A stretch of 54,329 nt of DNA from Clostridia bacterium (GTDB lineage Bacteria > Bacillota > Clostridia > Oscillospirales > CAG-272). The position numbers were made by a program, and so were the translations under genes. The stretch covers positions 1 through 54,329 of the forward strand of contig JAFUMW010000063.1 of the NCBI GenBank assembly GCA_017482465.1, written 5' to 3'. The notes under the pieces were generated by a model that saw only the letters and a list, made by a program, of their open reading frames with translations, did no database searches and was not told where the DNA came from. Positions 1-15,677 of the stretch are shown here, one piece after another. Each line of letters opens with the position of its first letter. The first letter of the stretch is position 1.

Positions 1-2070
1 AAAACCCGTGAGGGCGACCTCTGGTATGTAACTGGCGATTGCTCTGGCTGGGTAAGACGAAACATTGTTGCTGGCGATATGGTTCGTTCGATTTCGTTTG
101 ACGAATCCCAACATCCCGAATGTGATGTGGCTGAAAATGTTTTGATGTTAAGCACAGATTCAAACAATAACGCAACGCTGGTGTCTACTGCGGACGGACG
201 ACTGATGAGTCAAAGCGAAACTATATATGACGGTAGTAACTGGAGTGGTATCGCTCTTGGTTTTTATGCCGGAATAGGAATGGACTATCCTACGGTAGTT
301 TCGATTTCCACATCAAATCCATTCTATAGCTCGATAGTTTGTGAGTGTTACGAGTCTTATAAAGCAGGAAAGCTCTACAGATACAACGGAAGCTCTTGGC
401 AAGAAATTGTTGATGCCGATGCTATTGAGGCTATTGAAAAGGCAAACACTGCACAATCTACCGCAGACCAAAAGATTGTAACATATTATCAGAGGTTTGA
501 ACCATACCAACCTACTATCGGTGATTTATGGTATAACACCGCAGAAGCCAAAACTGAAACAAGACATATTGAGGTTGGTGACAATCTCGCAGGCGTAACC
601 ATTACTATAGACACATCTCTTGGTATACCATCTGTTTCAGATTACAACGAACTCATCAAGGCCTCTGGTGGTCTTATCTGTAGACAACCGTCTTTACTCA
701 ACAAAACCAGTCCGGGTACTTTAGAGTTAGTATTAAACAATATGTATTCTGAATTTTTATGTGATGGAGAATACTGGAACGCAACTACTACCGTACCTAC
801 TCCTTTTGGTATTGTTGATTCTGTAGATAAAGCAGACCCGTTCTATGCTTTAATCACGGCTACATTCACAAGCGACTACGAACCTAAGAAGCTTTATCGT
901 TATGACGGTACATCGTGGATTCTCGTTGAAGACGGCGATATCGAAAAAGTTAAAACAGATATCGACAACATTGGCAAAACTCTTGGTGAGTATATCACAG
1001 AAGAGGGCTACCTTACTGCTTCTAAATTAAAGGGTGCAATCAGCACAGCTTTATCTACTATGCAGAATGGTGCAGGAAATGTAATGTTTGATGACGACGG
1101 TATCTGGTTACTTAACGCCGCAACCAAAGAAGCATCTACCTCTGCTATCTGGATGAATGAAAAAGGTATTTTATTCGGTACCGGTACACGCGGATATATA
1201 AACGCAGACGAAGATGATGATAACGCTTGGACTTGGACTACCGCTATTGGTCACGACGGTGTTATTGCCGATGCAATGGCTACCAAGGTATTAAGTGCGT
1301 TCACTATCAATGGCGGTTCTATCAACATAGGCAACGGCAACTTTGTTGTAAATACCAAGGGTGAGCTCACCGCAAAAGCGGGTGTGTTCAAGGGTGTTGT
1401 ACAGGCTTCTGATTTCAAAGACTCAAGCGGTAACTCTATGATGAGTGGCAGTAAGTTTGATTCTGAATACCTATCTTTATATGGTATTGAGATTAAAAAT
1501 AAATCAACGAACGCTGTGACATTTGCGGTTGATGAAAACGGAGCGGTCACTATCAATGGTAGTGTTACACTTGGTACTGGAAGTAAAATCGAATGGGCAA
1601 ACATTGATGAATCTGGAAGCAGTGCTTATTCAGCAGCACAACAGGCAATTAGTGATGCCGACGATGCTTATTGGTACGCAGATGATGCTTATGACTACGC
1701 AAACTCTGCTTATTCAAGAGCGAACTCTGCACGAACACTTGCTCAAAATATTGCGAACGGTACTTATTCAGGTGGTACTTTCATCGATGGCACAAAAATC
1801 TATTCGCCAGAGATATATTCAGAGGAGTTTAGTGTAATTCCCGCAACCACCAGTTCAAGCGGCAGCTTCAATCTTTATGCGTACTACGGCTCAAGTTTAT
1901 TACACTGCTTTGAACTTGGATATTACGCAGGTACCGCACCATATGTTACATTTGATTCTCCTTGTTCTGCTTATGCACAATGGAATTTCAGCGTTACTGA
2001 TTTTAGCGGTAATATCAGCTTTGCTAATGCTACCGTTACAGGCTTAGATGTAACTGCAAAATTCGGATAA
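1..2070 (+). CDS. phage tail fibre / minor structural protein, 5' end cut by the window edge
   Basis: Frame 1 is open from nt 1 (KTREGDLWYVTG...), so the listed ATG at 79 is probably internal. Repeated motifs GDLWY and K(K)LYRY[ND]G[ST]SW are typical of Firmicute phage fibre proteins. A hairpin terminator follows. Confidence 0.6.
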   Translation, partial: KTREGDLWYVTGDCSGWVRRNIVAGDMVRSISFDESQHPECDVAENVLMLSTDSNNNATLVSTADGRLMSQSETIYDGSNWSGIALGFYAGIGMDYPTVVSISTSNPFYSSIVCECYESYKAGKLYRYNGSSWQEIVDADAIEAIEKANTAQSTADQKIVTYYQRFEPYQPTIGDLWYNTAEAKTETRHIEVGDNLAGVTITIDTSLGIPSVSDYNELIKASGGLICRQPSLLNKTSPGTLELVLNNMYSEFLCDGEYWNATTTVPTPFGIVDSVDKADPFYALITATFTSDYEPKKLYRYDGTSWILVEDGDIEKVKTDIDNIGKTLGEYITEEGYLTASKLKGAISTALSTMQNGAGNVMFDDDGIWLLNAATKEASTSAIWMNEKGILFGTGTRGYINADEDDDNAWTWTTAIGHDGVIADAMATKVLSAFTINGGSINIGNGNFVVNTKGELTAKAGVFKGVVQASDFKDSSGNSMMSGSKFDSEYLSLYGIEIKNKSTNAVTFAVDENGAVTINGSVTLGTGSKIEWANIDESGSSAYSAAQQAISDADDAYWYADDAYDYANSAYSRANSARTLAQNIANGTYSGGTFIDGTKIYSPEIYSEEFSVIPATTSSSGSFNLYAYYGSSLLHCFELGYYAGTAPYVTFDSPCSAYAQWNFSVTDFSGNISFANATVTGLDVTAKFG

Positions 2071-2077
2071 TAAATAC

Positions 2078-2106
2078 AACTCGCCAGATTCTCTCTGGCG
2101 AGTTTT
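2078..2106 (+). terminator. intrinsic terminator after the tail fibre gene
   Basis: aactcgccaga / tctggcgagtt 11-bp stem, 5-nt loop, then TTTT. Confidence 0.6.
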
Positions 2107-2128
2107 CATATGATTGGAGGTGAATTGA

Positions 2129-3562
2129 TTGGCAAGTATAAGCGTATCTAATTTAACAAATAAAACCTGTACCGTCAAGCTGACCTCTTTGGATACTGCT
2201 TGGGGTGGCGGTAGTAGAACTGTTAAATATTACTTCAAAACGGGTAGCTACCCTACGGAGTCAAGCTACTCTAAAAAAGTAAGCGGTAGTACTATATACG
2301 GCGCTCCTTCTTCTGGTGGTTCTGCGTCTGTTTCGGGATTGTCCGCTAATACGAAATATTATTGTCGGTGTTATGTTTATAACGGCAGCACATTACTTGC
2401 AACGATTCAAACCACATTCACAACAAAAAAGACAGTATCTGTTTCATCGTTCTCTGTTACACAAACGGCTACAGGTACCAAAAAGGCAACTGTTTCTTTT
2501 AGCGGTTCAAATTTGAGCGGCGGTTATTATTATATATGGGTTAGCGGTTGGTGTAAAGCTGAAGGCACACTATCATCCAACTCCAAAACAGTTACTATTT
2601 CGTTCGACTATTTCCAAGAATATGAGGTCGAGCTTGAAGTTGAAAACTATGGGCAGACCATATATAAGTACAAAACAGTAGACATTGAAGATATTGACTT
2701 AACGCCAACAAGCCTATCTACCACACGAATAGATGGTGGTTTTGAATTCTCGTGGAGCGGAGCTTATGATGCTGAATATTTTAAGGTCAGGCTTACAAGG
2801 AATTACGATAGTGTTACACAGACAAAAACCGTTTATTCAAAGTATGCTGAATTTACAGGACTTCAGTATGGTGTTGCGTACACCGTAGAAGTCAGAGCTT
2901 ATTATAGCTCAAGTAACTATGGAAGCTATGAGTTTGGCTATACTTGTACGACCGCTCCGGCTCAGCCAGAGTTTACGGCAACATCAAAAAATGGTGTTAT
3001 CACGGTTAGCTATAATCTGGCGGATACTTCAAATGTAACCTATGTATATATTAACCTATATGACAGCACCAACACTACGGCACTACAAACCAAAACACTT
3101 TCGGCGGCGTCTGGTTCGGTCTCGTTTGCTAAAGTTAGTGACGGGAAGTATTATATCAGAGCACAGTCTGTGTTTGTGTACAGTGGTAGTTATCTGTATT
3201 GTGTGGATGATTACGGAAGCAGATATACATTAACGAAGTCAATTACTGTTTCAAGCAAACCAGCATCTTTTAGCTGGACATACAGTAAAAGCTCAGGTAG
3301 TGCTTTTAACCTCAAGGCCACAGAGTGGAACTCGTTTACAAGCAAAATAAATGAATTCAGAGAGTGGAAAACCTTGAGTGATTATTCTTTTACCACAGCG
3401 GTTAAAGGTAATACTTTCACTGCCGCAATGTTTAATCAGGCAGTAAATGCAATCAACGCAATGTACAGTAATAACCCGCTTTCTACCGTGTCTAAAGGTA
3501 GTACTGTAACAGCTTATCTTTTGAATAACATTGTCAGTGTGCTGAACAATGTTCCAGAATAA
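2129..3562 (+). CDS. phage structural protein with several FN3-like beta-sandwich repeats
   Basis: TTG start 8 nt after GGAGG. Repeated ~90-aa Ser/Thr/Tyr-rich units (e.g. VSNLTNKTCTVKLTS..., FSVTQTATGTKKATVSFSG..., YFKVRLTRNYDS...VEVRAYY). Sits in the tail module. Confidence 0.5.
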   Translation: MASISVSNLTNKTCTVKLTSLDTAWGGGSRTVKYYFKTGSYPTESSYSKKVSGSTIYGAPSSGGSASVSGLSANTKYYCRCYVYNGSTLLATIQTTFTTKKTVSVSSFSVTQTATGTKKATVSFSGSNLSGGYYYIWVSGWCKAEGTLSSNSKTVTISFDYFQEYEVELEVENYGQTIYKYKTVDIEDIDLTPTSLSTTRIDGGFEFSWSGAYDAEYFKVRLTRNYDSVTQTKTVYSKYAEFTGLQYGVAYTVEVRAYYSSSNYGSYEFGYTCTTAPAQPEFTATSKNGVITVSYNLADTSNVTYVYINLYDSTNTTALQTKTLSAASGSVSFAKVSDGKYYIRAQSVFVYSGSYLYCVDDYGSRYTLTKSITVSSKPASFSWTYSKSSGSAFNLKATEWNSFTSKINEFREWKTLSDYSFTTAVKGNTFTAAMFNQAVNAINAMYSNNPLSTVSKGSTVTAYLLNNIVSVLNNVPE

Positions 3563-3785: not shown

Positions 3786-4589
3786 ATGGCTTTTTATGGA
3801 TGCGAATTTAGCTTTAACGGCATTTCGTGTACAGAGTATGGATTGATGATGTATGACTTCGGAACAAAGTCCGATACAAGCAACACCTTGTCTGTTAACT
3901 CGGAGATTGTTGAGGACAGAATCGCAAGACGATATACCCCGTTGCATTACGGCGTTATTACAAATAAACCGCTTGAGTTCACTATGACATTTGGAGCGGA
4001 TATCAATGCCATTAACAAGGGTGTGTTTCTTGATAGATGGGATATGGATATTATTGCGAACTGGCTAACGGCTCACGATAAATACCAGTGGCTTGAGATA
4101 ACTCAGCCAGATATGGAAATGTTCAGATACAAATGTTTTATTACCGACCTCAAACATACTGATGTCGGAAATCTCCCTTGGGGATTTACCTGCAAGGTTA
4201 TCTGTGACTCTCCATTTGCATACCAGTATCCCGAAGTTTTCACGGGTGTTGTAAACGGTACAACAGAAATTGATATACATAATAAAAGTTCGTATCGCGG
4301 ATATTACAAGCCCAAGCTTAATCTGTTCCTTAGCAAAGGCGGGACATTCAACATTATAAACGAAACGGATAACAATCGTATTATGCAGTTTACGGGATTG
4401 CCTACTTCTGCAACAAACATTTTTATTGATACAGAAAACGAAATCATTACTTGCAATACGGTTGAAAACCCATATCAGTATTTTAATTTCAACTTCCTGA
4501 GATTATGTCGTGGCAACAATCATTTGATTATGAACGGCGTAGGAAATGTTGAGATTATGTGTGAATTCCCAATTAGCATAGGAGGTTGA
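3786..4589 (+). CDS. distal-tail-protein-like (siphovirus tail component family) protein, tentative
   Basis: N-terminus MAFYGCEFSFNGISCTEYGL and C-terminus ...LCRGNNHLIMNGVGNVEIMCEF resemble the Sipho_tail/Dit pattern. RBS gcgaggtga. Confidence 0.45.
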   Translation: MAFYGCEFSFNGISCTEYGLMMYDFGTKSDTSNTLSVNSEIVEDRIARRYTPLHYGVITNKPLEFTMTFGADINAINKGVFLDRWDMDIIANWLTAHDKYQWLEITQPDMEMFRYKCFITDLKHTDVGNLPWGFTCKVICDSPFAYQYPEVFTGVVNGTTEIDIHNKSSYRGYYKPKLNLFLSKGGTFNIINETDNNRIMQFTGLPTSATNIFIDTENEIITCNTVENPYQYFNFNFLRLCRGNNHLIMNGVGNVEIMCEFPISIGG

Positions 4590-4983: not shown

Positions 4984-5394
4984 TTGAATACTACATACTT
5001 TAAGAATGTCATTATGGGTAATGTTTTCGGTACTGCAACCGGTACGGAACTCCCAACAACTTACTATATTGGTCTGTCAAGCACAGCACCTACCGCTGAT
5101 GGAACCAATGTTACTGAACCTAACAGTGCCGGTAGCGGATATACAAGAGTTCAGCTCTCGTCTTTAACTGCTCCTGCCGACGGCGTAATCAGTAACGCAA
5201 ACGCAATCAATTTCCCTGAGAGCCTTTCTGACTGGTTTCCTGCATCTGCTCCCGCAAGATATTATGTCATTTATGATTCTAAGAACGAGGGCAATCTGTT
5301 GATGTATAACCAGCTTACCACTTCGAGAATTATCGAAACAAACACTATTGCTACTATTAAGGCAAACAGTCTTTACTTACAACTTACAGATTAA
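4984..5394 (+). CDS. hypothetical phage tail-associated protein (136 aa)
   Basis: TTG start after ataggagga. Pattern YYIGLSSTAP...GYTRVQL...NFPES...YYVIYDS is seen in small phage fibre-associated proteins. Confidence 0.4.
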   Translation: MNTTYFKNVIMGNVFGTATGTELPTTYYIGLSSTAPTADGTNVTEPNSAGSGYTRVQLSSLTAPADGVISNANAINFPESLSDWFPASAPARYYVIYDSKNEGNLLMYNQLTTSRIIETNTIATIKANSLYLQLTD

Positions 5395-5409: not shown

Positions 5410-6480
5410 TTGGCGCAGATTGATATTTTGCTAAACAGTCTGCCAAAAGAATATGACATCGTTGTAGATAAAAATAATTCATTCGATATTGTTCTTGACG
5501 AAAAGTATCATAACTACGATGTATATATTTATAACTTGACAGACAGGCAGGGTATCTACGGAGACGAGTTAAACCCTCTTATCTTCCGACTTACACAAAA
5601 TGAGGTTGACTGCTTAATAGATGTCAACCTCTTAAGCGACAAGAACTATAGCTATCTTGCACTTAATGGAAGTAAGGTTGAGGTAGACAAGAAAATGCTT
5701 GTTGCCTTAAAAGAGCAAATCTTAAAGCTGAAATCGAATGTAGATATGGCATTGGTTAAGACGACAGATATTGAACCGAATGAATTCAAGCTCCTTACTT
5801 CTGGAGAGGTAACCAACACAACCAGACTGAATACCACAAAATTATCAGCTCGTTTAACAGACCGCATCACTGCTAATATGAGTAAGGTTGTTGAGCTGTT
5901 ATTAAACACAAGTGGTACTCACTGGTTTGACGGCTATCTGTATGAGTATGACGACTGGCTTCTCTCGGATATGGATTTAATATATCCTAAATTATCTCTC
6001 GTTACGACCTGCGGGAAAATGTATATGAAATTCACATTTGATATCGGAGAACACAACCTGCATATATCAAGTGATATTGCAGACTTCACTTCAAATGTTG
6101 ATATCAGAAATGTTGTAAGAAACACCTTACAGCTTTCTGACGACATAGACTTTTCTTATCAGATTATTTGCTCTTGCAAACAGAACATCTTTGCTTTGAA
6201 AAACCCAGAGATATCTATAAGTATTTCATCGCTTATATATCCAAAGCAATCTTTAGCGAAGCTTTCAAACCAGACTCTTAAAGATATGGAGATAGCGGCA
6301 GGTCTTAATGTTGTATCTCAAACAATATTAAGTACATTTATGGTTGCTGATGAAATGGAAGCATACTATGGGCTTGGGCATTACGACAAGCGATACTTGT
6401 ACCAGTGGGATAACCACACGATTTACAGTATGAGTGCCGCAGTCGTAACTACACCTCAAAGCGGCTCTGTAGATATGTAA
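5410..6480 (+). CDS. hypothetical phage structural protein (356 aa)
   Basis: TTG start after acgaggtga, co-directional and tightly spaced in the tail module. No recognisable family. Confidence 0.4.
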   Translation: MAQIDILLNSLPKEYDIVVDKNNSFDIVLDEKYHNYDVYIYNLTDRQGIYGDELNPLIFRLTQNEVDCLIDVNLLSDKNYSYLALNGSKVEVDKKMLVALKEQILKLKSNVDMALVKTTDIEPNEFKLLTSGEVTNTTRLNTTKLSARLTDRITANMSKVVELLLNTSGTHWFDGYLYEYDDWLLSDMDLIYPKLSLVTTCGKMYMKFTFDIGEHNLHISSDIADFTSNVDIRNVVRNTLQLSDDIDFSYQIICSCKQNIFALKNPEISISISSLIYPKQSLAKLSNQTLKDMEIAAGLNVVSQTILSTFMVADEMEAYYGLGHYDKRYLYQWDNHTIYSMSAAVVTTPQSGSVDM

Positions 6481-6510
6481 AGAATTTAATATAAGAATTG
6501 GAGGAACGAT

Positions 6511-8031
6511 ATGAGTTATACACCAAACTTAAACTTATTGCTTACTCCCGAAGATGATACCACAACTACCTTTAAGGACTGGCGTGTTGGTATCAACGGA
6601 GAAGAAGGCAATTCCAATATGGCAAAAATTGACGAGGCGTATGGTGCCTTAAACGACCAGACACAGAAAATTCAATCTAAGGTTGATGTTGTTTCAGACA
6701 AGGTGTTTGGTGACGCTCCTAAGACTTGGGGCGATGTGCAGACAATCGTAAGAAACGGTGCGGCTGCACAGTACTTCGACATTGGTGACCAGTTCATTGT
6801 CGAAAAGTTATCTGCCGTTACAGCAAGTAAGGGTACAAGTACTGGTATTACAGCGGTTACTGTTAATGCAAACTCTTTCGTAGAAGGTTGTGGAGAAGTT
6901 CACGCTGGAGAGTATGTTTTCACATTTGATGGCAAGTCTTGGCGTAATGAAGCCGGTAAGGCTGTTAAGATTGAAAACTATGGTATCTCTGTAACCGGTA
7001 CCGCTAAAGCTGGCGACCATGTGATTATCACAGAGACATCTACACAGCTTGCTTTTGATGTTATTGGTATCGACCACGACACACCTGCAGACGGAACCTT
7101 AAAGCACAGTATGACATTACAGATGCACGACCTCTGGCCTACTGCTATTGCGTTTGACGCCACAGAGGCTACTTGGTATATCGACGAAGCTACCTATCCT
7201 CAGGGGCTTGTTGCAGGTACATATCACTTCACACTTCCTGCTGGATATGATAACGCTTATGGTGGTGGTTCCACATTAAACTTCACACTCACAAAAGATG
7301 TTCCCGTTGGTGGACAAATCAGATTTGCTTGGAGTTACAATGTGCAGGCTAACACTTGTAAAATTTCCACATACGAGTCTATCGGAGCGACTGCAGTAAT
7401 TGAAACTGTAAGTGTTGCCGATGGTGAAGCAGGAACCGCAATGCCTACACTTCACGCTACAGCGGTAAGTGATAACGCAAACTGCGTACATCGTTTCCGT
7501 TATGGTTCTAATAACTGGGCAGAATCTGGTCTTCGTCAGTGGTTAAACACTGATGCAGAAGCAAATACTTGGTGGGAGCCTAAAACAGTATTTGATAGAC
7601 CTATTGCGATTGCGGCAACAACTGCAGGTTTCTTAAAAGGAATCGACCCTGCGTTCCTTGATGTTGTTGGAGAAGTAGTGAAGACAACTCAGGAAAGTAT
7701 CTCTGACGAATACGGACACAACACATCTACCGAACGCTTCTTCTTACTCTCTCGTCCTGAAGTATATGCAGGCACAGAGCGTAGTGCAGACGGTGCAGAC
7801 GGTAAAGTATATGAGTACTATGGTGCTGGATATTCTGACTTAGCATCTCCCGGTACTGGAGCAGACTCGAACAGAATTAAATACAGAAACGGTTCCGCAA
7901 CTTATTGGTGGTTGCGTACTCCTTATTCTACCAGCGGTCATGATGTTCGTCTTGTCTACCCTACAGGTACCTTGAACAACGTCAGTGCCAACAGCAGTCT
8001 CGGCGTCGCTCCGGCTTGCGTAATCGTGTAA
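6511..8031 (+). CDS. DGR target protein: tail fibre / receptor-binding protein with C-terminal variable region
   Basis: RBS ggagga. N-terminus MSYTPNLNLLLTPEDD...W..GINGEEGNSNMAKIDEAY is a typical phage fibre N-terminus. C-terminus ...YWWLRTPYSTSGHDVRLVYPTGTLNNVSANSSLGVAPACVIV carries the VR. The W..SGLRQWLN and WWLR(T/S)P...GV(R/A)P motifs fit C-type-lectin-fold DGR targets. Confidence 0.85.
   Translation: MSYTPNLNLLLTPEDDTTTTFKDWRVGINGEEGNSNMAKIDEAYGALNDQTQKIQSKVDVVSDKVFGDAPKTWGDVQTIVRNGAAAQYFDIGDQFIVEKLSAVTASKGTSTGITAVTVNANSFVEGCGEVHAGEYVFTFDGKSWRNEAGKAVKIENYGISVTGTAKAGDHVIITETSTQLAFDVIGIDHDTPADGTLKHSMTLQMHDLWPTAIAFDATEATWYIDEATYPQGLVAGTYHFTLPAGYDNAYGGGSTLNFTLTKDVPVGGQIRFAWSYNVQANTCKISTYESIGATAVIETVSVADGEAGTAMPTLHATAVSDNANCVHRFRYGSNNWAESGLRQWLNTDAEANTWWEPKTVFDRPIAIAATTAGFLKGIDPAFLDVVGEVVKTTQESISDEYGHNTSTERFFLLSRPEVYAGTERSADGADGKVYEYYGAGYSDLASPGTGADSNRIKYRNGSATYWWLRTPYSTSGHDVRLVYPTGTLNNVSANSSLGVAPACVIV
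7907..8018 (+). repeat. DGR variable region (VR)
   Basis: 112-bp ungapped match to 8774-8885. 16 mismatches, every one opposite an A in the TR copy. The adenine-free GC-rich 3' block cggcgtcgctccgg (8001-8014) is identical in both. Confidence 0.9.
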
Positions 8032-8043
8032 TCTGGTAACCTA

Positions 8044-8237
8044 ACACCTTGTGGTTACAAAGGGAAATAATCCACCCGACAGGGTGGTTATTTTATTATA
8101 CTTAAAACAATGGTACACACTTTGCGGTATAGGATAGCAAAGGGTGTATCTATAATATGTGACTACCCTTTGTGGTATGTAATAACTTTGTCCCACCCTT
8201 TATGGGTTAAGACAAGGTGTAGGACACTTTACGATAT
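8044..8237 (+). repeat. five degenerate direct repeats (consensus ACAC-CTTTGYGGTAT) in the target-avd intergenic region
   Basis: Copies start near 8044 (acaccttgtggttac), 8115 (acacactttgcggtat), 8163 (ctaccctttgtggtat), 8193 (ccaccctttatgggtt) and 8223 (gacactttacgatat). Also inverted partners caaagggtgt (8138-8147) and acaaggtgt (8211-8219). Confidence 0.45.
8068..8097 (+). terminator. GC-rich hairpin with 4-nt loop plus T-run downstream of VR
   Basis: taa(t)ccaccc GACA gggtggtta followed by ttttatt. Serves as the target-gene terminator and resembles the VR-flanking hairpin of model DGRs. Confidence 0.5.
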
Positions 8238-8256
8238 ATAATGGGAGGTTGAAGAA

Positions 8257-8721
8257 ATGAGTGTACCAGAAGGTCAAAGATGTAGAGGAAAACTCGCCAT
8301 CGAAACAGAAGCTGATAATCTTTTGCAATACATATTTGATGTTACAGTAAAGTATTATCTGCCACCAGAGCCGTGCGAGGATGCAAAGGTTACAAGAGAC
8401 AAAATGCTTGAGTATGCAAACTCAAAATGGTTTGCAGACAATATGCGTTCTAAAATGTTGTCTTGTGTATCTAACATTCAAACGGCAAACAAAATTGTGA
8501 TTGAAGACAATGCAAGTCTTTATGAGCGAAGAAAATTTCAATCACAAGCAGAGCGTGCGGTTGAAGATGTACTCACTTCTGCCACTCTTATGTATCGCAG
8601 AAAACTTATTAAAAGCAAGAGAGTAAAGTATATCGGAGAACAGATAGGACACCTAAAGCGTATGATACAAAATTGGCGTAAATCTGATAAACAAAGATAT
8701 ACGGCTTCTCTTAAGAAATAA
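8257..8721 (+). CDS. avd: DGR accessory protein, Avd-like (accessory variability determinant), tentative
   Basis: Lies between target and TR. RBS GGGAGG 8 nt upstream. Helical and basic C-terminal half ...ANKIVIEDN..ERRKFQSQAERAVEDVLTSATLMYRRKLIKSKRVKYIGEQIGHLKRMIQNWRKSDKQ resembles the Avd AN...R..Q......GW.KS pattern. At 154 aa it is longer than canonical Avd. Confidence 0.55.
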   Translation: MSVPEGQRCRGKLAIETEADNLLQYIFDVTVKYYLPPEPCEDAKVTRDKMLEYANSKWFADNMRSKMLSCVSNIQTANKIVIEDNASLYERRKFQSQAERAVEDVLTSATLMYRRKLIKSKRVKYIGEQIGHLKRMIQNWRKSDKQRYTASLKK

Positions 8722-8773
8722 CTTATATGGGGTAGTCGTTGCAAGAAGTTCCGTGCTGCATTTTAGGTGCCTC

Positions 8774-8885
8774 AGTGGTTGCGTACTCCTAATTCTACCA
8801 ACGGTAATAATGTTCGTAATGTCAACCCTACAGGTAACTTGAACAACAACAATGCCAACAACAGTAACGGCGTCGCTCCGGATTG
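8774..8885 (+). repeat. DGR template repeat (TR), non-coding
   Basis: Invariant donor copy of the VR. In the VR frame it has 14 AAY (Asn) codons. The listed ORF 8767-8961 (N-rich) is this repeat. Confidence 0.9.
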
Positions 8886-9061
8886 GGTGGTATCAGTAGG
8901 AAGTAGCACTTTATGTGACCAAACCGAATACCCACGCAAGGAACGGCTATCCCAGCCGTAAAAGGCGAAACAGGTTTGCCGATGCAGTCTACTCAACCAA
9001 CGGTAGTAGGTACTGCTATACACGGTATTCAAAATTTATTTTAATCAGAAAGAGGTGCTCA
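8886..9061 (+). ncRNA. DGR RNA spacer region between TR and RT (putative priming/structural part of the template RNA)
   Basis: 176-nt non-coding gap in the canonical TR-RT position. Adjacent hairpins acggct-atccc-agccgt (8943-8959) and ggcgaa-acagg-tttgcc (8964-8980). Confidence 0.45.
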
Positions 9062-10165
9062 ATGAATACTACTAATGCACCTGCTGTCAAGGAGATGGCT
9101 TGTGACTTTGAAAATTTGTATAACGCAATGAATGTTTGTAAATCAAGTGTTATGTGGAAAGATAGTGTCGCAGGCTGGGTAAAGAACGGAATCGTAAACT
9201 GTGCAAAACTTGAAGAGCAGTTAATGAATGGCACTTATGACCTCGAAGAATATTCTCGGTTCACAATCTACGAACCCAAGAAAAGAGATATCGTAAGTAC
9301 ACGATTCAAGGATAGAGTGTTCCAAAGAAGTCTTTGCGACACATACTTGACAGAACAAATCACTAAATCCTTTATCTACGATAATGGTGCTTGCCTTGAA
9401 AATAAGGGCACAGAGTTTGCACGGCGTCGGCTCGTGGCTCACATTCAACGCTTTTACCGCAAGCACGGTCGTAGTGGTTATGTCTTGAAATGCGACATAA
9501 CTAACTACTTTGGCTCCACTCCACATAGTGTAGTCAAAGAAAAGATGCGAAAGTTATGTGATGACGATTGGGCTTACTCTGAAGTCTGTCGAATTGTTGA
9601 TAGCTTTAGCACGGAAGAAAGCCCGGGTGTTGGTATGGGACTTGGCTCTCAGGCAACACAGCTTTGTCAACTGGCTGTATTGAACGATATCGACCACGGG
9701 ATTAAAGAGCGTAAACGAATTAAACACTATGTCAGATATATGGACGACCTTATACTTATTCACGAAAGTAAGGATACCTTAAAGGATTGTTTGAAATATA
9801 TCGAAGACGAACTTAACAAAATGGGATTGAAACTGAGTGCGAAGAAAACACAGATATTTCCCATAACACAACCAATTCACTTTCTTGGATATTCATTCAG
9901 ACTTACCGAGACTGGTAAGGTTGTAAAGAAAGTTCTTCCAAAGAAAGTAACTCACGAGCGTCGCAAATTAAAGCGTATGAGAAAGTTGGTTGATGAGGGT
10001 CTGATGACTCGTGAAAAGTTAGACCAGTGTTTCGAGTCGTGGTTAGCTCACGCTTCGGCAGAACCGTCTGCCGGAAGAAAAGGTACTCCGTTCTTAAGTA
10101 GGACGGATGATTACTTTATGATTGAAAATATGAAACGATTTTATAAATCTTTATGGGAGGTTTAG
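9062..10165 (+). CDS. DGR reverse transcriptase
   Basis: ATG at 9062 after aaagaggtg. RT motifs present: KKRDIVSTRFKDRVFQRSL, LKCDITNYFGSTPH, GMGLGSQATQL (DGR-type GxxxSQ), YVRYMDDLILI (YMDD), FLGYSF. The ORF-track start at 8915 is an upstream extension through the spacer. Confidence 0.9.
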   Translation: MNTTNAPAVKEMACDFENLYNAMNVCKSSVMWKDSVAGWVKNGIVNCAKLEEQLMNGTYDLEEYSRFTIYEPKKRDIVSTRFKDRVFQRSLCDTYLTEQITKSFIYDNGACLENKGTEFARRRLVAHIQRFYRKHGRSGYVLKCDITNYFGSTPHSVVKEKMRKLCDDDWAYSEVCRIVDSFSTEESPGVGMGLGSQATQLCQLAVLNDIDHGIKERKRIKHYVRYMDDLILIHESKDTLKDCLKYIEDELNKMGLKLSAKKTQIFPITQPIHFLGYSFRLTETGKVVKKVLPKKVTHERRKLKRMRKLVDEGLMTREKLDQCFESWLAHASAEPSAGRKGTPFLSRTDDYFMIENMKRFYKSLWEV

Positions 10166-10166
10166 T

Positions 10167-10340
10167 ATGCAGTATTTATCAATAAAAGACCAGCTCTTGA
10201 TTGAGCGTAAGAAAAATGCTGCCCTCACCGCTGAGGTAGCTAAGAACAAGGCTGATACAGATTATATCGCTATGATGTGTGATGTAGAACTGGAAATGCC
10301 TGAAGACGAAATGATGGACACGGAAGTTGAGGAGGGCTAA
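10167..10340 (+). CDS. small hypothetical phage protein (57 aa, acidic C-terminus)
   Basis: ATG one nt after the RT stop: MQYLSIKDQLLIERKKNAALTAEVAKNKADTDYIAMMCDVELEMPEDEMMDTEVEEG. Below the ORF-track cutoff. Sits in the position usually found before xkdX. Confidence 0.4.
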   Translation: MQYLSIKDQLLIERKKNAALTAEVAKNKADTDYIAMMCDVELEMPEDEMMDTEVEEG

Positions 10341-10345
10341 GATAT

Positions 10346-10492
10346 ATGGAACACAGTGCAAAATTTGAAAAAGTAAAAGATTACTATGACCGCGGCCTTT
10401 GGAACGAAGCTCGTGTCGCAAATGCAGTGGTTAAGGGATGGATTACCGAAGCTGAGTATGAGGAAATCACAGGCATCCCCTATGCTGAATAA
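10346..10492 (+). CDS. xkdX: XkdX family phage protein (48 aa)
   Basis: MEHSAKFEKVKDYYDRGLWNEARVANAVVKGWITEAEYEEITGIPYAE matches the XkdX signature (YY..GLW......V.KGWIT..EY.EITG). Confidence 0.7.
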   Translation: MEHSAKFEKVKDYYDRGLWNEARVANAVVKGWITEAEYEEITGIPYAE

Positions 10493-10507
10493 TAGGAGGT
10501 AGTATTT

Positions 10508-10708
10508 ATGGCGATTGTAAAAAAGACTTATAAGGGTACACCCCTCGACTGTCAGCAGGAGTTTGTCTGCGATACTCGTGCAGATGTAGACAATCTTCCT
10601 ACACAATTTACTGAGAAAGACAAATGCCCTACGGGCTCTACTGCGCTCGTTATTGACGACAGCTCTGTCTGGATGTTGAATAGCGAAGGTGTATGGAAAG
10701 AATTATAA
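10508..10708 (+). CDS. hypothetical phage protein (66 aa)
   Basis: RBS taggaggt, ATG. No family recognised. Confidence 0.4.
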   Translation: MAIVKKTYKGTPLDCQQEFVCDTRADVDNLPTQFTEKDKCPTGSTALVIDDSSVWMLNSEGVWKEL

Positions 10709-10730
10709 TCACCAGAAAGGAGTGACTTGA

Positions 10731-11012
10731 ATGGCTATAAGTGTTGAGACTCTTGCTCTTGCCAAGAAGTATACAGATAAAACTATAGTCTCTAAAGGAG
10801 ACGCGGGTGCTGCTGTTATTCCTGATAACTTCATCGGAGCATCCAAGTTGACTGAAGACTTAAGAAAAGCCATCGATGCCGCTGGTGTACATATTGACGG
10901 TGCCGTTACTTCGGAAGACGGTGCCCACGCATTAAGATATTTTAACAACACCTTGCAGTATTATGATGGCAGTAAATGGGTAACGCTCTCCCTTGCAAAC
11001 CTGTTAATATAA
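10731..11012 (+). CDS. hypothetical phage protein with a fibre-like C-terminal motif (93 aa)
   Basis: RBS aaaggagtga. C-terminus LRYFNNTLQYYDGSKWVTL echoes the LYRYDGTSW motif of the 1-2070 fibre protein. Confidence 0.4.
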   Translation: MAISVETLALAKKYTDKTIVSKGDAGAAVIPDNFIGASKLTEDLRKAIDAAGVHIDGAVTSEDGAHALRYFNNTLQYYDGSKWVTLSLANLLI

Positions 11013-11080: not shown

Positions 11081-11467
11081 TTGGCAAATAAGAAAAAGAA
11101 GAAAGTAAAATTGACTTCTCGTATTGCAAAGTTCTTTAAGAACATAGCGGCAAAACGAGAAAAGGAATATTCCAAAAGACTACTTACTCGAATTGTGAAC
11201 AGTTCGATACTGATGATGTGGGGCACTTATGTTCTCGCTTGGTATGGCAAGACAGAAATTGCGGAAACCCTATCTAAAACAATAGCGGCATCAATTATCG
11301 CTGTTGTAGTTGGATACCTCGCTAAGTCTGTTATCGAGAATATCAGCAAACACACAGATACTTTTGGAAAGAATGACTCGGTTAGCGTAGAGGAAGTAAT
11401 CAGAAAAGCTCAGGAACAAGCTGAGAGCTTTGATGTTCCCTATGTAAATATGAACCGTGATTGTTGA
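11081..11467 (+). CDS. phage membrane protein with two predicted TM helices (holin/antiholin-like, tentative)
   Basis: TTG start 6 nt after GGGAGGTGG. Basic N-terminus, hydrophobic stretches IVNSSILMMWGTYVLAWYG and TIAASIIAVVVGYLA. First gene of the lysis cassette. The ORF-track start at 10976 spans the upstream terminator. Confidence 0.35.
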   Translation: MANKKKKKVKLTSRIAKFFKNIAAKREKEYSKRLLTRIVNSSILMMWGTYVLAWYGKTEIAETLSKTIAASIIAVVVGYLAKSVIENISKHTDTFGKNDSVSVEEVIRKAQEQAESFDVPYVNMNRDC

Positions 11468-11487
11468 AACAAAGGAAGGAGGATTTT

Positions 11488-12195
11488 ATGGCATTAAGAG
11501 GAACAACTGTTGAGCAAAAGATATGGAACTACTTCAAGGACAGAGGCTTAAATGATTTTGGCTGTGCGGGCTTAATGGGTAATCTCTATGCAGAATCCGC
11601 TTTAAACCCTAAGAACTTACAGAACTCATATGAAAAGAAGTTGAAGTATACAGACGACACATACACACAGGTTGTAGATAATGGCAAGTATAAAAACTTT
11701 GTCAAGGACAGTGCCGGCTATGGTCTCGCACAATGGACTTACTGGAGCAGAAAGCAGGCTTTGTTAGAGTTTGCTAAAGCTATGGGTAAATCTATTGGAG
11801 ACCTTGAGATGCAACTTGACTTCTTGTATCAGGAGTTAAGTACAGGATATAAAAAGGTTTTGAAAACATTAACCAATGCCACATCTGTATTGGATGCTTC
11901 AAACTCTGTATTACTTGAGTTCGAGAGACCAGCCGACCAGAGTAAAGCTATGCAAAAGAAAAGAGCTTCATACGGCGAAGGATATTATGCAAAGTATGCT
12001 ATTAAGGAGGACGAGTCTATGGCAGAAATCAAATTAGATAACACGCCTGATGTTTGGGCTAAAGAAGCTGTTGATTGGGCGGTTAAGAATAAAATTCTCT
12101 TCGGAGATGAAAACGGCAACTACAAACTTCACAGTGCCTGCACCAGACAGGAGATGCTTGTATTTCTTGACAGGGTGTATGGCTTAGTTAAATAA
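11488..12195 (+). CDS. endolysin 1: phage lysozyme-like domain plus a C-terminal SLH-like wall-binding module
   Basis: ATG after aaggaagga. FGCAGLMGNLYAESALNP motif of phage (tail-tip type) lysozymes. C-terminus NTPDVWAKEAVDWAVKNKILFGDENGNYKLHSACTRQEMLVFLDRVY fits the SLH consensus. Confidence 0.65.
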   Translation: MALRGTTVEQKIWNYFKDRGLNDFGCAGLMGNLYAESALNPKNLQNSYEKKLKYTDDTYTQVVDNGKYKNFVKDSAGYGLAQWTYWSRKQALLEFAKAMGKSIGDLEMQLDFLYQELSTGYKKVLKTLTNATSVLDASNSVLLEFERPADQSKAMQKKRASYGEGYYAKYAIKEDESMAEIKLDNTPDVWAKEAVDWAVKNKILFGDENGNYKLHSACTRQEMLVFLDRVYGLVK

Positions 12196-12210: not shown

Positions 12211-13206
12211 ATGAGATTGTTTGAAAGTATTTTAACCCTCAACGATTGCTATAAGGCAGGAAGAACTATTGTACCTAAAGGTATTATGGTTCATTCTACT
12301 GGAGCAAACAATCCGTGGCTGAAAAGATATGTACCTGACGACGGTCAGCTTGGATATAACCAGTACAACAACCATTGGAATATGAGTGGCGTCGGTGCCT
12401 GTGTTCACGGATTTATTGGAAAGATGGCTGACGGTACTATTGCTACATATCAGACACTTCCTTGGAACTGGAGAGGCTGGCACTCTGCCTCCGGTAAGAA
12501 AGGTTCCGCAAACAACACCCACATCTCTTTTGAGATTTGTGAGGATGGTCTTACAGATGCTACATATTTCAGAGCGGTGTTTAATGAAGCCGCAGAACTT
12601 TGTGCCTATCTCTGTAAGATGTATAACTTAAATCCATTAACGGATATTATCTGTCATTCTGAGGGACACACAATGGGTATTGCGTCTAACCACGGAGATG
12701 TAATGCACTGGTTCCCTAAACACGGTGAGAATATGGACACATTCAGACAGAAAGTATATGAACTTGTAAATGAAGAGTTTAAATGGAATGAGTCTAAGGT
12801 TGACTATATTGGAACTGTGTCGGTTAAGAATGATGTGCTTAATATCAGAAAACAGCCGAGGGTTGGAGCTACCATTATTGGTAAGCACGCAGACGGCGAC
12901 ACGGTAACTATCTGTGCTAAAACAGACAACGGATGGTACAGAGTTGAGTATCCGACAATCGGTACAGGATACATAAGCTCTGCATATGTGTCTGTGAGCG
13001 ACAGAAAGGCACCTCAGAGCGATGTTAAGCCTGAGGTAATAAAAGATAACACCCCAGACGCTTGGGCGGCTGAGGCGGTAAATAACGCGGTTAAAAACGG
13101 TATTCTCTACGGAGATGATACGGGTAATTACAAATTACATAGTGAGTGTACACGACAGGAAATGTTAATCTTCCTGTACCGTTTTTACAAATCAATCAAA
13201 GGTTAA
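12211..13206 (+). CDS. endolysin 2: N-acetylmuramoyl-L-alanine amidase (Amidase_2/PGRP) + SH3b + SLH-like module
   Basis: IMVHSTGANNPW...WHSASGKKGSANNTHISFEICED amidase core. SH3b-like VLNIRKQPRVGATIIGKHADGDTVTICAKTDNGWYRVEY. C-terminus NTPDAWAAEAVNNAVKNGILYGDDTGNYKLHSECTRQEMLIFLYRFY. Confidence 0.8.
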   Translation: MRLFESILTLNDCYKAGRTIVPKGIMVHSTGANNPWLKRYVPDDGQLGYNQYNNHWNMSGVGACVHGFIGKMADGTIATYQTLPWNWRGWHSASGKKGSANNTHISFEICEDGLTDATYFRAVFNEAAELCAYLCKMYNLNPLTDIICHSEGHTMGIASNHGDVMHWFPKHGENMDTFRQKVYELVNEEFKWNESKVDYIGTVSVKNDVLNIRKQPRVGATIIGKHADGDTVTICAKTDNGWYRVEYPTIGTGYISSAYVSVSDRKAPQSDVKPEVIKDNTPDAWAAEAVNNAVKNGILYGDDTGNYKLHSECTRQEMLIFLYRFYKSIKG

Positions 13207-14525: not shown

Positions 14526-15584
14526 GTGCCGTCTTTCAAGAACAATCAGCGTGGTACTTGGTATTGTAAGTTTTACTACACAGATTGGACTGGGGCTAAG
14601 AAACAAAAGAAAAAGGAAGGCTTCGCCACCAAGAGAGAATCGCAAGAGTGGGAACGCAACTTCCTTAACAGTTGCCGCATTGACTGCGACATTACATTTG
14701 AGAATTTTTGTGAGAAGTATATGGCTCATTGTAAAGCAAGATTAAAGCCTACGACTTACGAGAATAAGATGTACACCATAAGAGATAAGGTTCTCCCGTA
14801 TTTCAGGCATATGAAGCTCAAAGATATAAAACCCAGTACGCTCCGTACTTGGCAAGACTCTTTGATTACACACGAGAAAGGATACACAGAAACCTATCTT
14901 AAGACTATCAACAATCAGATGTCAGCAATCTTAAACTTTGCGGTAAAGAATGATTATATCCCTCATAACCCGATGCACAAATGTGGAAGTATGGGAAAGA
15001 AACACGCAGAGGGATTACAGTTCTGGACTCTGGATGAATTCAAACAATTCTTTGAGTCTGTAAAAGATAAGCCTATGTCAGAAGCCATATTCAATCTGAT
15101 GTTCTATAGTGGAATTCGTGAAGGAGAGTTACTTGCTTTAACATTAAAAGACTTTAACTTTGAAAAGAATACAGTCGATATAAATAAAAGCTATGTACGA
15201 TTCGATGGAAAGGATTTAATACAAACTCCAAAGACTCCTAAGAGCAAGAGAGTCATCACATTGCCTATACAGACAATGGAGATAATAAAAAATTATGCAG
15301 GCAAACTATACAGCTATCGTCCTACCGATAGGTTGTTTACCTGCACTAAAAGCTATTTATCTCACGAGATGATTCGTGGTTGTAGATTGTCGGGTGTGAA
15401 GAAGATTAGAGTTCACGACATCAGACATTCTCACGCTTCGCTTCTTATCGAACTCGGTTTCCAACCTCTGTTGGTATCAGAGCGTTTGGGACACGAGAAC
15501 ATCGAAACCACTTTGCAAACTTACTCACACTTGTATCCAAACAAGCAACAGGAAGTCGCTGATAAACTCAGTGAGATAGCTTAA
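14526..15584 (+). CDS. int: tyrosine recombinase / phage integrase
   Basis: GTG start 9 nt after GGAGG. N-terminal arm-binding-type domain (GTWYCKFYYTDWTGAKKQKKKEGFATKRE). Catalytic signature GIREGELLAL, HDIRHSHASLL, LGHENIETTLQTYSHLY. Confidence 0.9.
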   Translation: MPSFKNNQRGTWYCKFYYTDWTGAKKQKKKEGFATKRESQEWERNFLNSCRIDCDITFENFCEKYMAHCKARLKPTTYENKMYTIRDKVLPYFRHMKLKDIKPSTLRTWQDSLITHEKGYTETYLKTINNQMSAILNFAVKNDYIPHNPMHKCGSMGKKHAEGLQFWTLDEFKQFFESVKDKPMSEAIFNLMFYSGIREGELLALTLKDFNFEKNTVDINKSYVRFDGKDLIQTPKTPKSKRVITLPIQTMEIIKNYAGKLYSYRPTDRLFTCTKSYLSHEMIRGCRLSGVKKIRVHDIRHSHASLLIELGFQPLLVSERLGHENIETTLQTYSHLYPNKQQEVADKLSEIA

Positions 15585-15629: not shown

Positions 15630-15677
15630 ATCCCCGGGAAGCCCGTAGTTAAGCGGTTTCTACGGGGATTGCTTTTT
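15630..15677 (+). terminator. hairpin plus T-run between the integrase and the guaA stop codon
   Basis: cccgtag/ctacggg (alternative atcccc/ggggat) then gcttttt. The T-run overlaps the guaA stop on the other strand. Confidence 0.4.

Follow-up and report, generated by a model that had tools for sequence, protein, structure and literature searches.

The prototype of the diversity-generating retroelements (DGRs) is the one found in Bordetella phage BPP-1. In its ribonucleoprotein (RNP), a duplex between the template repeat (TR) and the spacer (Sp) positions the priming nucleotide Sp A56, which is followed by G57, and a further element, the 'cPRT Stop', comprises the duplex that the sequence upstream of TR forms with the spacer and, after it, a short stem-loop and adenosines left unpaired; the DGR RNA also has stem-loops that bind the reverse transcriptase (RT) and the accessory protein Avd, and residues R74, I181 and Q187 of the Bordetella enzyme (bRT) touch the template or the incoming nucleotide (bioRxiv 10.1101/2023.10.23.563531). 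These RNA elements have already been reported as conserved across phyla, Bacillota included (bioRxiv 10.1101/2023.10.23.563531). On the DNA side, Guo et al. (2011) described GC-rich hairpins with 7–10-bp stems and 4-nt GRNA loops located 4–34 bp downstream of phage variable regions (VRs), and the hairpin of BPP-1 is required for retrohoming (PMC3240598). Here we describe a DGR at positions 6511–10165 of a 54,329-nt stretch of DNA from a Clostridia bacterium (contig JAFUMW010000063.1, hereafter the window).

DUF6273-type DGR targets in phages and prophages of gut Clostridia have already been published. DUF6273 is the target in nd4 and nd12 ('target2'; PMC10743442), in the Faecalibacterium prophages Lelie, CP11, Roos and Pioen (PMC11792537) and in Toutatisvirus (bioRxiv 10.1101/2024.10.15.618418). 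Its fold was called C-type-lectin-like in the tentaclin (PMC10743442) and Toutatisvirus (bioRxiv 10.1101/2024.10.15.618418) papers, and VR was placed at the C-terminus of DUF6273 both for the Faecalibacterium prophages (PMC11792537) and for Toutatisvirus (bioRxiv 10.1101/2024.10.15.618418).

We consider region 6511–10165 to be, with a probability of about 0.9, a bona fide and complete DGR of the BPP-1 architectural type, which an integrated temperate phage carries in its tail/lysis arm; the host of this phage would be an uncultured rumen or gut Ruminococcaceae-type Clostridia bacterium. The three open reading frames (ORFs) on the + strand, 6511–8031 (506 aa), 8257–8721 (154 aa) and 9062–10165 (367 aa), are arranged in the order target (with VR), avd, TR, spacer and RT, which is the same as in BPP-1. 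A preliminary description, made from the letters of the window, had claimed that all canonical parts of a DGR are present in the classic order; each part that we tested was there, and a check of the ORFs and of the sequence returned the same ORF coordinates, the 176-nt spacer and the YMDD-type RT. The parts of the element are as follows.

6511–8031, + strand: DGR target gene, 506 aa (Pfam DUF6273, phrog_19280, AlphaFold2 (AF2) model, Foldseek)
7908–8001, + strand: variable region proper (the mutable part), with 14 A-to-N differences from TR and 18 variable codons, aa 470–497
8257–8721, + strand: Avd-like accessory gene, 154 aa, pI 9.6 (PHROG Avd; predicted bundle of four helices, the C-terminal one strongly basic)
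8775–8885, + strand: template repeat, non-coding, with 33 adenines in the mutable part 8775–8868, a GC block at 8869–8881 and GATTG at 8881–8885
8886–9061, + strand: spacer of the DGR RNA, 176 nt
9062–10165, + strand: DGR reverse transcriptase, 367 aa (YMDD, LGSQATQ, equivalent of bRT R74; RVT_1, phrog_1423, 8ub7)

Repeats and adenine bias

The window contains a direct repeat of about 111–114 nt (7908–8021 versus 8775–8888) with a constant offset of 867 and no gaps, and base-by-base comparison limits the gapless homology proper to 7908–8018 and 8775–8885. VR reaches to 13 nt before the target gene's stop codon, and TR lies 176 nt upstream of the RT gene. In the strict core, 7908–8014, all 14 mismatches fall at adenines of TR and none elsewhere (33 A in 107 nt; P=6.7e-9); when the comparison is extended to 7907–8018, 16 of 16 mismatches lie opposite a TR adenine (35 A in 112 nt; P=4.3e-10). 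It is clear that this pattern is far beyond chance. The first non-adenine mismatch is found at 8019/8886, and beyond this point the flanks of VR and TR are unrelated.

The preliminary description had placed VR at 7907–8018 and TR at 8774–8885 and had counted 16 differences, all of them at TR adenines. The gapless pair is real, and we saw no difference at a non-adenine position of TR within 7907–8018; however, the column 7907/8774 is the edge of the homology, is ambiguous and cannot be assigned, and one of the 16 differences, 8015/8882, is better read as a fixed difference between the two copies of the initiation of mutagenic homing element (IMH in VR, IMH* in TR), as described below.

The bases that replace the TR adenines in the core are balanced (5 T, 5 G and 4 C), and every mismatch is at the first or second codon position of the target frame. 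Among the adenine-bearing codons of TR, 14 of 18 are AAY (AAT or AAC) and the other four are ANN; a stop codon can be reached from none of them, and the theoretical repertoire is up to about 10^19 protein variants. A search of the 54-kb window with the A-masked TR pattern did not reveal a third copy of the repeat; the left part of the prophage lies beyond the window.

Variation among related loci

To relatives of the RT we applied a detector that reports gapless repeats of at least 50 nt in which at least 80% of the mismatches are at A in one copy. An adenine-biased TR/VR pair was detected in 52 of the 80 genome loci with an RT relative, many of the remainder being short contigs, and in most of the detected relatives TR lies directly upstream of RT, as in the window. 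The closest relatives of the RT come from goat-rumen and other ruminant or gut Clostridia metagenome-assembled genomes (MAGs).

The search with the target protein led to clusters that are unusually rich in members (17, 35, 77 and 743 sequences). In four target clusters of at least 90% identity, the mean column entropy was 0.88–0.97 bit in VR versus 0.02–0.11 outside it. Hypervariable columns, with at least four residue types, correspond to aa 472, 475, 477, 478, 481, 483, 487, 489–492, 494, 495 and 497, with aa 470 and 474 added in one cluster, and all of them fall within the 19 codons predicted from the adenines of the window's TR (Fisher 1e-21 to 1e-27). We also noticed that one 90%-identity cluster of a 461-aa DUF6273 relative (P0071) holds 743 distinct members, an instance of the way in which DGR hypervariation inflates protein catalogues.

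At the DNA level, we compared the window with ten contigs, L084–L093, which carry a 99%-identical Avd. They diverge from the window by about 11% in the target outside VR, by 6–10% in RT and by 4% in avd. Their VRs differ from that of the window at 169 positions in total, and 169 of 169 are TR-adenine positions. By this count the VR polymorphism of close relatives is confined in their assemblies to positions that match TR adenines, and the four protein clusters vary almost solely at the codons predicted; the preliminary description had proposed to look for such confinement in mapped reads. TR itself is 100% identical across 11 related contigs, and together with its flanks (8772–8902) it does not differ between the window and the ten contigs at any of 131 nt. 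This pattern is the mark left by ongoing replacement of VR from a TR that itself stays unchanged. At the rate of avd, about 5 differences in these 131 nt would be expected. The invariance of TR points either to very strong selection on TR and the DGR RNA or to an avd–TR module that recombines between phages. In L093 (3305–4406) the RT ORF is split into 91 and 272 aa, a frameshift or a fault of assembly being the probable cause; the VR of this contig is identical to that of L086, in which RT is intact.

DNA elements at the 3′ end of VR

The 3′ end of VR and the sequence following it contain these elements.

8002–8014, + strand: GC-rich block GGCGTCGCTCCGG, the IMH core, with an identical copy in TR at 8869–8881
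8015–8029, + strand: IMH-like 3′ segment, which differs from IMH* of TR (8882–8896); its extent is set by analogy with BPP-1
8030–8065, + strand: 36-nt insertion just after the target stop codon, with its own small hairpin at 8035–8058 (from alignment to the related loci L001 and L011)
8072–8087, + strand: GC-rich hairpin CCACCC-GACA-GGGTGG, its loop of the GRNA type, with a T-run after it; it may act in target recognition, as terminator of the target gene, or as both

Related loci also have a GC-rich block at this place. The difference at 8015/8882, C in VR and A in TR (G-C-TTG versus G-A-TTG), recurs in nearly all of them, and the codon at 8015, Ala502 in the motif GVAPAC, is invariant in all natural-variant clusters. 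Because the difference is common to nearly all relatives and Ala502 never varies, 8015/8882 is an IMH/IMH* difference and not a product of mutagenesis.

Both the IMH/IMH* pair and a GRNA-type hairpin are therefore present, the hairpin having a stem of six GC-rich pairs and lying 53 nt from the end of homology, which is outside the published ranges. In the relatives, the hairpins are mostly 19–30 nt past VR, with GACA, GAAA, GGTA, GTTA or GCAA loops. The 36-nt insertion shifts the hairpin of the window from about 19 nt to 53 nt past VR. This insertion is absent from L001, L011, L084, L085, L087 and L090 and present in L086, L088, L089 and L091–L093; the contigs that carry it have distinct VRs, so the insertion does not prevent diversification. 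The hairpin also resembles an ordinary terminator and may terminate the target gene.

It seems very probable that the DGR is active now or was active until very recently. Only one other contig of the same element was found, with an identical RT, 6 SNPs in 4.5 kb and an identical VR; this speaks against current activity, so that the present activity of this exact copy is inferred. It would also be consistent with the view that a genuine DGR has here become a recently fossilised cassette, whose VR pattern records past activity only, which we regard as unlikely. The distance of 53 nt to the hairpin, outside the published 4–34 bp, could be taken as a sign of such inactivation, but relatives with the same 36-nt insertion carry different VRs. 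Similarly, the split RT ORF of L093 indicates that decay occurs in the lineage, whereas in the window all three ORFs are intact, the catalytic YMDD and the ribosome-binding sites are present, TR and every cis-element are intact, and no non-adenine mismatch has accumulated in 107 nt of VR/TR.

Reverse transcriptase

We place the start of RT at the ATG at 9062, preceded by an AGAGGTG ribosome-binding site, and not at the upstream GTG at 8915, which is the start of the longest ORF. The protein matched Pfam RVT_1 and phrog_1423 (2e-84). In a comparison with all PDB sequences the best match was 8ub7_A, the bRT of the Bordetella phage (1e-23), followed by a Cas6-RT-Cas1 protein (5e-9) and group II maturases (1e-8); the pairwise identity to Brt was 27% (6e-30). 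Relatives of the RT in deposited phages include reported DGR carriers, namely nd12, Faecalibacterium FP_Toutatis and Bordetella phages.

The equivalents of bRT R74, I181 and Q187 are R, L and Q in the window. The preliminary description had pointed to a DGR-type GxxxSQ motif, which it read in GLGSQ. This reading turned out to be out of register: aligned to I181-G-S-L-T-S186-Q187 of bRT, motif 4 of the window is L-G-S-Q-A-T-Q, that is GxxxTQ and not [I/L/V]GxxxSQ, with Thr in place of Ser and Gln retained. Among 77 relatives of the RT, the dipeptide in register is SQ in 62, TQ in 9 (the subclade of the window itself) and LQ, VQ or NQ in 6. Since relatives with bona fide TR/VR pairs also carry TQ, LQ, VQ or NQ, SQ is favoured in this clade without being strictly required.

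The NCBIfam library did not contain any DGR-specific RT model that matched, and all its RT matches were sub-threshold and belonged to other classes: TIGR04416 (group II) with 84.7 bits against a cut-off of 300, Drt3a with 64.8 against 200, retron St85 with 41 against 235 and AbiA with 11.8 against 250. The group II, Drt2-5, retron and AbiA models all stayed far under their cut-offs, so that the library is uninformative on membership except that it excludes the group II, retron, DRT and Abi classes. PADLOC gave generic RT matches only, and an Rfam scan of 6000–11000 at E<=1 gave no match at all, whether to a curated DGR RNA family or to RNA of introns or retrons.

A group II intron, retron or Abi/DRT enzyme next to a coincidental 111-bp duplication of the 3′ end of a gene would also give an RT beside a repeat, and the generic profile matches (TIGR04416, 84.7 bits; Drt3a, 64.8 bits; the PADLOC RT models) could be quoted in its favour. 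Those scores lie far below the curated cut-offs (for example 84.7 versus 300), among solved structures bRT is the closest relative by a margin of 15 orders of magnitude, the Rfam scan of 6000–11000 showed no group II intron or retron RNA, and the strict adenine bias (P about 1e-9 to 1e-10) and the population data are inexplicable by simple duplication. For practical purposes the non-DGR reading is already refuted. Comparison of the sequences thus supports grouping the enzyme with DGR RTs and not with those of group II introns, retrons or Abi/DRT systems; in these comparisons bRT was best at 1e-23 and the other classes remained under their curated cut-offs.

RNA elements of TR and spacer

The following elements were recognized in the RNA that would comprise TR and the spacer.

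8728–8740, + strand: upstream strand of a cPRT-Stop-like duplex, starting 7 nt past the avd stop codon and pairing with 8942–8954
8932–8942, + strand: primer strand CCAC-G-CAA, pairing with the 3′ end of TR; predicted priming nucleotide A8939, then G8940
8942–8954, + strand: downstream strand of the cPRT-Stop-like duplex, AACGGCTATCCCA
8955–8972, + strand: short stem-loop GCC-GTAAAA-GGC followed by GAAACA; candidate stem-loop and A-minor adenosines of the cPRT Stop
8984–9016, + strand: 10-bp hairpin with covariation, within the spacer's 3′ half; candidate for a stem-loop that binds RT

At the 3′ end of TR, 8883–8885 and 8887–8890 pair with 8932–8935 and 8937–8939. The sequence CAAGGA (8937–8942) was invariant in 20 of 20 aligned spacers, and all TRs end with GATTG. 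We compared pairing energies within and between loci in an alignment-free manner and assessed the difference by permutation. The flanks of the primer duplex covary (within-locus −6.1 versus between-locus −4.6 kcal/mol, p=6e-4), and by analogy with BPP-1 A8939 is the predicted priming nucleotide and G8940 the predicted equivalent of G57. The stop duplex gave −19.1 kcal/mol within versus −13.4 between loci (permutation p=2e-4); equivalents of 12–14 bp, differing in sequence, were found in nearly all relatives. The TR:Sp priming duplex and the cPRT-Stop duplex are thus both present in this DGR RNA.

Of 25 distinct loci, 20 had a stem-loop with an A-rich tail, built from 18 different stems in all. 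The control with shuffled sequences was weak (11%) and in the window itself the heuristic chose another hairpin, so this finding is consistent with the cPRT Stop and not proven. RNAalifold on the MAFFT alignment of spacers recovered the hairpin at 8984–9016 alone, with compensatory changes at all 10 pairs; the long-range duplexes emerged from the within/between-locus test. Since the conservation of such RNA elements is already published, our RNA results add support for a common mechanism and do not amount to a discovery.

Accessory protein

The preliminary description had noted a small basic helical avd-like gene between the target and TR. This agrees with its match over the full length to phrog_3206, 'Avd protein of DGR' (6.3e-10), with its pI and with the AF2 model, which consists of four long helices (pLDDT 91). 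The last 50 residues contain 15 K/R versus 2 D/E. The top Foldseek matches of the model were 2gsc and 2rld, which carry the annotations of a conserved hypothetical protein and of an 'S23 ribosomal protein family' protein, with TM scores normalised to the target of 0.67–0.84 and E values of only 0.05–0.4. Both structures belong to PF05635, like the Avd of BPP-1 (bAvd), and are those first noted as the closest homologues of bAvd. The protein has no Pfam match, and a sequence search of the PDB gave no meaningful match; the 30 homologues that we found are called 'hypothetical protein' at best, and none has a precomputed Pfam domain. In our view the 154-aa protein is an accessory protein of the Avd type and belongs to a divergent subfamily.

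Several observations weigh against a plain assignment of the locus to the BPP-1 type. The Avd-like protein reached only 14 bits in the NCBIfam Avd model (cut-off 80; E=0.04), its family showed no similarity to bAvd in a profile comparison, and the 50 best fold matches of its model did not include bAvd. In the spacer, no convincing counterpart of the long Avd-binding stem-loop was seen, just a short hairpin at 8906–8917, and the minimum free energy of the single TR–Sp RNA was no more stable than that of shuffled sequences (z=+0.49). To these can be added the 6-bp stem, the distance and the terminator-like appearance of the hairpin at 8072–8087. It is possible, in our opinion unlikely, that the Avd-like protein defines a sequence-distinct accessory family with a variant DGR RNP (without the long Avd-binding stem-loop, with the stop duplex outside avd and with TQ) and a TR under unusually strong conservation. 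We favour an ordinary DGR that is slightly atypical in its divergent Avd subfamily, the TQ of RT motif 4, the intergenic strand of the stop duplex, the insertion before the hairpin and the ultra-conserved TR.

Target protein

The target consists of low-confidence helices (aa 1–90), a beta-rich part (aa ~94–320) and the C-terminal DUF6273 domain (aa 325–505, nt ~7483–8025), which was identified by Pfam (E=1.2e-18); the match to phrog_19280 had E=2e-47. The pLDDT of the AF2 model was 90. When the model was compared with the PDB by Foldseek, the single significant match was the IgA peptidase of Thomasclavelia ramosa, 9qa6 (8.6e-8), the N-terminal domain of which is labelled DUF6273 in the 9qa6 paper. 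In BFVD, the matches were DUF6273 proteins of uncultured sipho-, podo- and myoviruses and one 'tail-collar fiber protein'. Mtd and TvpA were not recovered by Foldseek of the whole target against the PDB, the target family showed no similarity to Mtd in the hhalign profile comparison, and a PDB sequence search with the target gave no meaningful match.

The preliminary description ascribed to the target a phage tail-fibre N-terminus and, on this ground, receptor binding with tropism switching. Homology lends the first claim no support: the N-terminal 95 aa matched no Pfam or PHROG family. The receptor-binding role loses this argument and keeps two others, synteny and the DUF6273 literature. It seems probable that the target is a tail-associated ligand-binding protein.

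Two points tell against receptor binding, namely that it would be deduced from position, with synteny and the DUF6273 literature behind it, and that the DUF6273 part also matched phrog_10993, 'Hoc-like head decoration' (5e-25). The second of them would suit an active DGR with a target of another kind, either a virion-surface adhesin (tentaclin- or Hoc-like, binding plant fibre, mucus or non-host ligands) or a protein that benefits the lysogen. DUF6273 is indeed also found in tentaclins and in the bacterial IgA peptidase's N-terminal domain, and the N-terminus of the target lacks tail-fibre homology, but neither Pfam nor the AF2 model revealed Ig-like repeats of the tentaclin/Hoc type in the target. 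The 'tail-collar fiber protein' among the best viral fold matches and the position of the gene between tail genes (DUF6558, Gp80 fibre-I-like) and the lysis cassette, exactly the place of mtd in BPP-1, also argue against such a role, which we consider rather unlikely. A ligand-binding protein of the tail is the reading that we prefer.

Prophage and host

The right arm of the prophage takes up the window from its first position to about 15600 and has a GC content of 0.39–0.43 versus 0.44–0.50 beyond it. The neighbouring genes are listed below.

3786–4589: DUF6558 phage tail protein
4984–5394: Gp80 podophage-fibre-I-like protein
5410–6480: 356-aa ORF with no family match, directly upstream of the target in all close relatives
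11461–12195 and 12211–13206: two endolysins (Phage_lysozyme2; Amidase_2 + SH3_3), each with a C-terminal SLH domain
14526–15584, + strand: tyrosine integrase, whose end is some 90 nt away from the GMP-synthase-type gene's 3′ end
15676–16656, − strand: GMP-synthase C-terminal/PP-loop gene, 326 aa
30404–35245, − strand: GH3 + CBM6 protein, 1613 aa, with a C-terminal type I dockerin, near GH106-like, GH2 and BNR genes

The 356-aa ORF had no Pfam match; since it is conserved directly upstream of the target, its product may be a partner tail or baseplate protein. The large ORFs in 79–3562 (663 and 477 aa) received no significant family assignment. Small ORFs lie between the DGR and the endolysins. 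The SLH domains of the endolysins point to a host with an S-layer or an SLH-anchoring cell-wall polymer, which is thereby a candidate for the class of receptor used by the phage. The GMP-synthase-type gene probably has the attachment site at its 3′ end, the other end of the prophage lying outside the window.

The host genes that follow the prophage include, in addition to the GMP-synthase C-terminal-type gene, those for tRNA-Glu, glycoside hydrolases, polynucleotide phosphorylase (PNPase), PriA and RsmB. The dockerin-bearing protein marks the host as a fibre degrader of the cellulosome type. PNPase shares 99% identity with a protein of a 'Clostridia bacterium' MAG and 96% with that of a 'Ruminococcaceae bacterium' MAG. 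The prophage genes, the integrase, the dockerin protein and the PNPase identities together confirm the earlier idea of a temperate phage in a cellulosome-bearing host of the Clostridia class.

Proposed mechanism and significance

For the first four steps of the mechanism we follow the BPP-1 prototype, backed by the conserved cis-elements; the fifth step was shown at the population level. A transcript of avd–TR–Sp(–RT) would fold so that the 3′ end of TR, TTG..GTGG, pairs with CCAC.CAA of the spacer and places A8939 as the cis-primer. The 13-bp duplex 8728–8740:8942–8954, the short stem-loop and the adenosines would serve as a stop or positioning element. RT bound to the basic four-helix-bundle Avd-like protein would then make cDNA from TR, faithfully at C, G and U and with random incorporation opposite A. 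The cDNA would replace VR and leave TR itself unaltered, with the 3′ junction fixed by the GC block common to VR and TR, the IMH segment peculiar to VR and, downstream, the GC hairpin with its GRNA loop. In the final step, the DUF6273 domain is rewritten at 18 codons within its 37 C-terminal residues. If the target is a ligand-binder of the virion tail module, its diversification most likely alters the choice of host surface receptor that is bound.

The element is one well-documented addition to the tens of thousands of DGRs in catalogues and opens no new question. Its value is that of a clean natural example from an uncultured fibre-degrading Ruminococcaceae lineage of the rumen or gut. Public assemblies already give VR-only, adenine-only variation over many samples together with an invariant TR, which makes it a convenient test case for benchmarks of DGR finders and for the dynamics of phage–host receptors in cellulolytic rumen bacteria. 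A further use would be to see how far the RNP model of BPP-1, with its priming duplex and cPRT Stop, reaches into phages of Bacillota with a divergent Avd.

Comparison with known systems

Among deposited phage genomes this DGR lineage has only distant relatives. Megablast of window positions 1–25000 against deposited phages found no DNA-level match, and the best relative was MT835664, an unannotated human-faecal contig with 60% identity in RT and 50% in the target.

With the pentameric four-helix-bundle proteins of the Avd/PF05635 type (bAvd; 2gsc, Xcc0516; 2rld, BT_0352), the Avd-like protein shares its place between target and TR, its basic character and its predicted fold. It differs from them in having no Pfam match, in its NCBIfam Avd score (14 of 80 bits) and in the lack of profile similarity to bAvd.

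The DGRs of gut Clostridia phages with DUF6273 targets resemble the window in the position of VR at the C-terminus of DUF6273, in the temperate phages that carry them and in their hosts, which are Clostridia gut anaerobes. The RT of the window is 38% identical to that of nd12, 35% to that of FP_Brigit and 32% to that of FP_Toutatis, and the DUF6273 part of the target is 30–34% identical to the nd4 and nd12 proteins. In contrast to these phages, the window has a single target, with no second target of the tentaclin/Ig-domain type in the window, and habitat and host are also different, with relatives in ruminant-gut MAGs and a dockerin-bearing host.

From BPP-1 the window differs in the target and the Avd-like protein, which have no detectable sequence similarity to Mtd and bAvd, and in the length of the latter (154 aa versus 128 aa in bAvd). 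Motif 4 of RT is GxxxTQ instead of GxxxSQ, the upstream strand of the stop duplex is intergenic (between avd and TR), whereas in BPP-1 it is inside avd, the hairpin is 53 nt from VR, a clear long Avd-binding stem-loop was not seen, and the host is a Gram-positive anaerobe. These features leave the element within the known kind of DGR. The succession of fibre genes, target with a 3′-terminal VR, avd, TR, RT, small ORFs, endolysin and attachment site is that of BPP-1. The RTs are homologous (27%, 6e-30), with the equivalents of R74 and Q187 kept and I181 replaced by L. The two systems also have in common the design of AAY codons, the GC block, the IMH/IMH* difference and the hairpin with a GRNA loop downstream of VR, as well as the TR:Sp priming duplex with A followed by G and the stop duplex followed by a stem-loop and adenosines.

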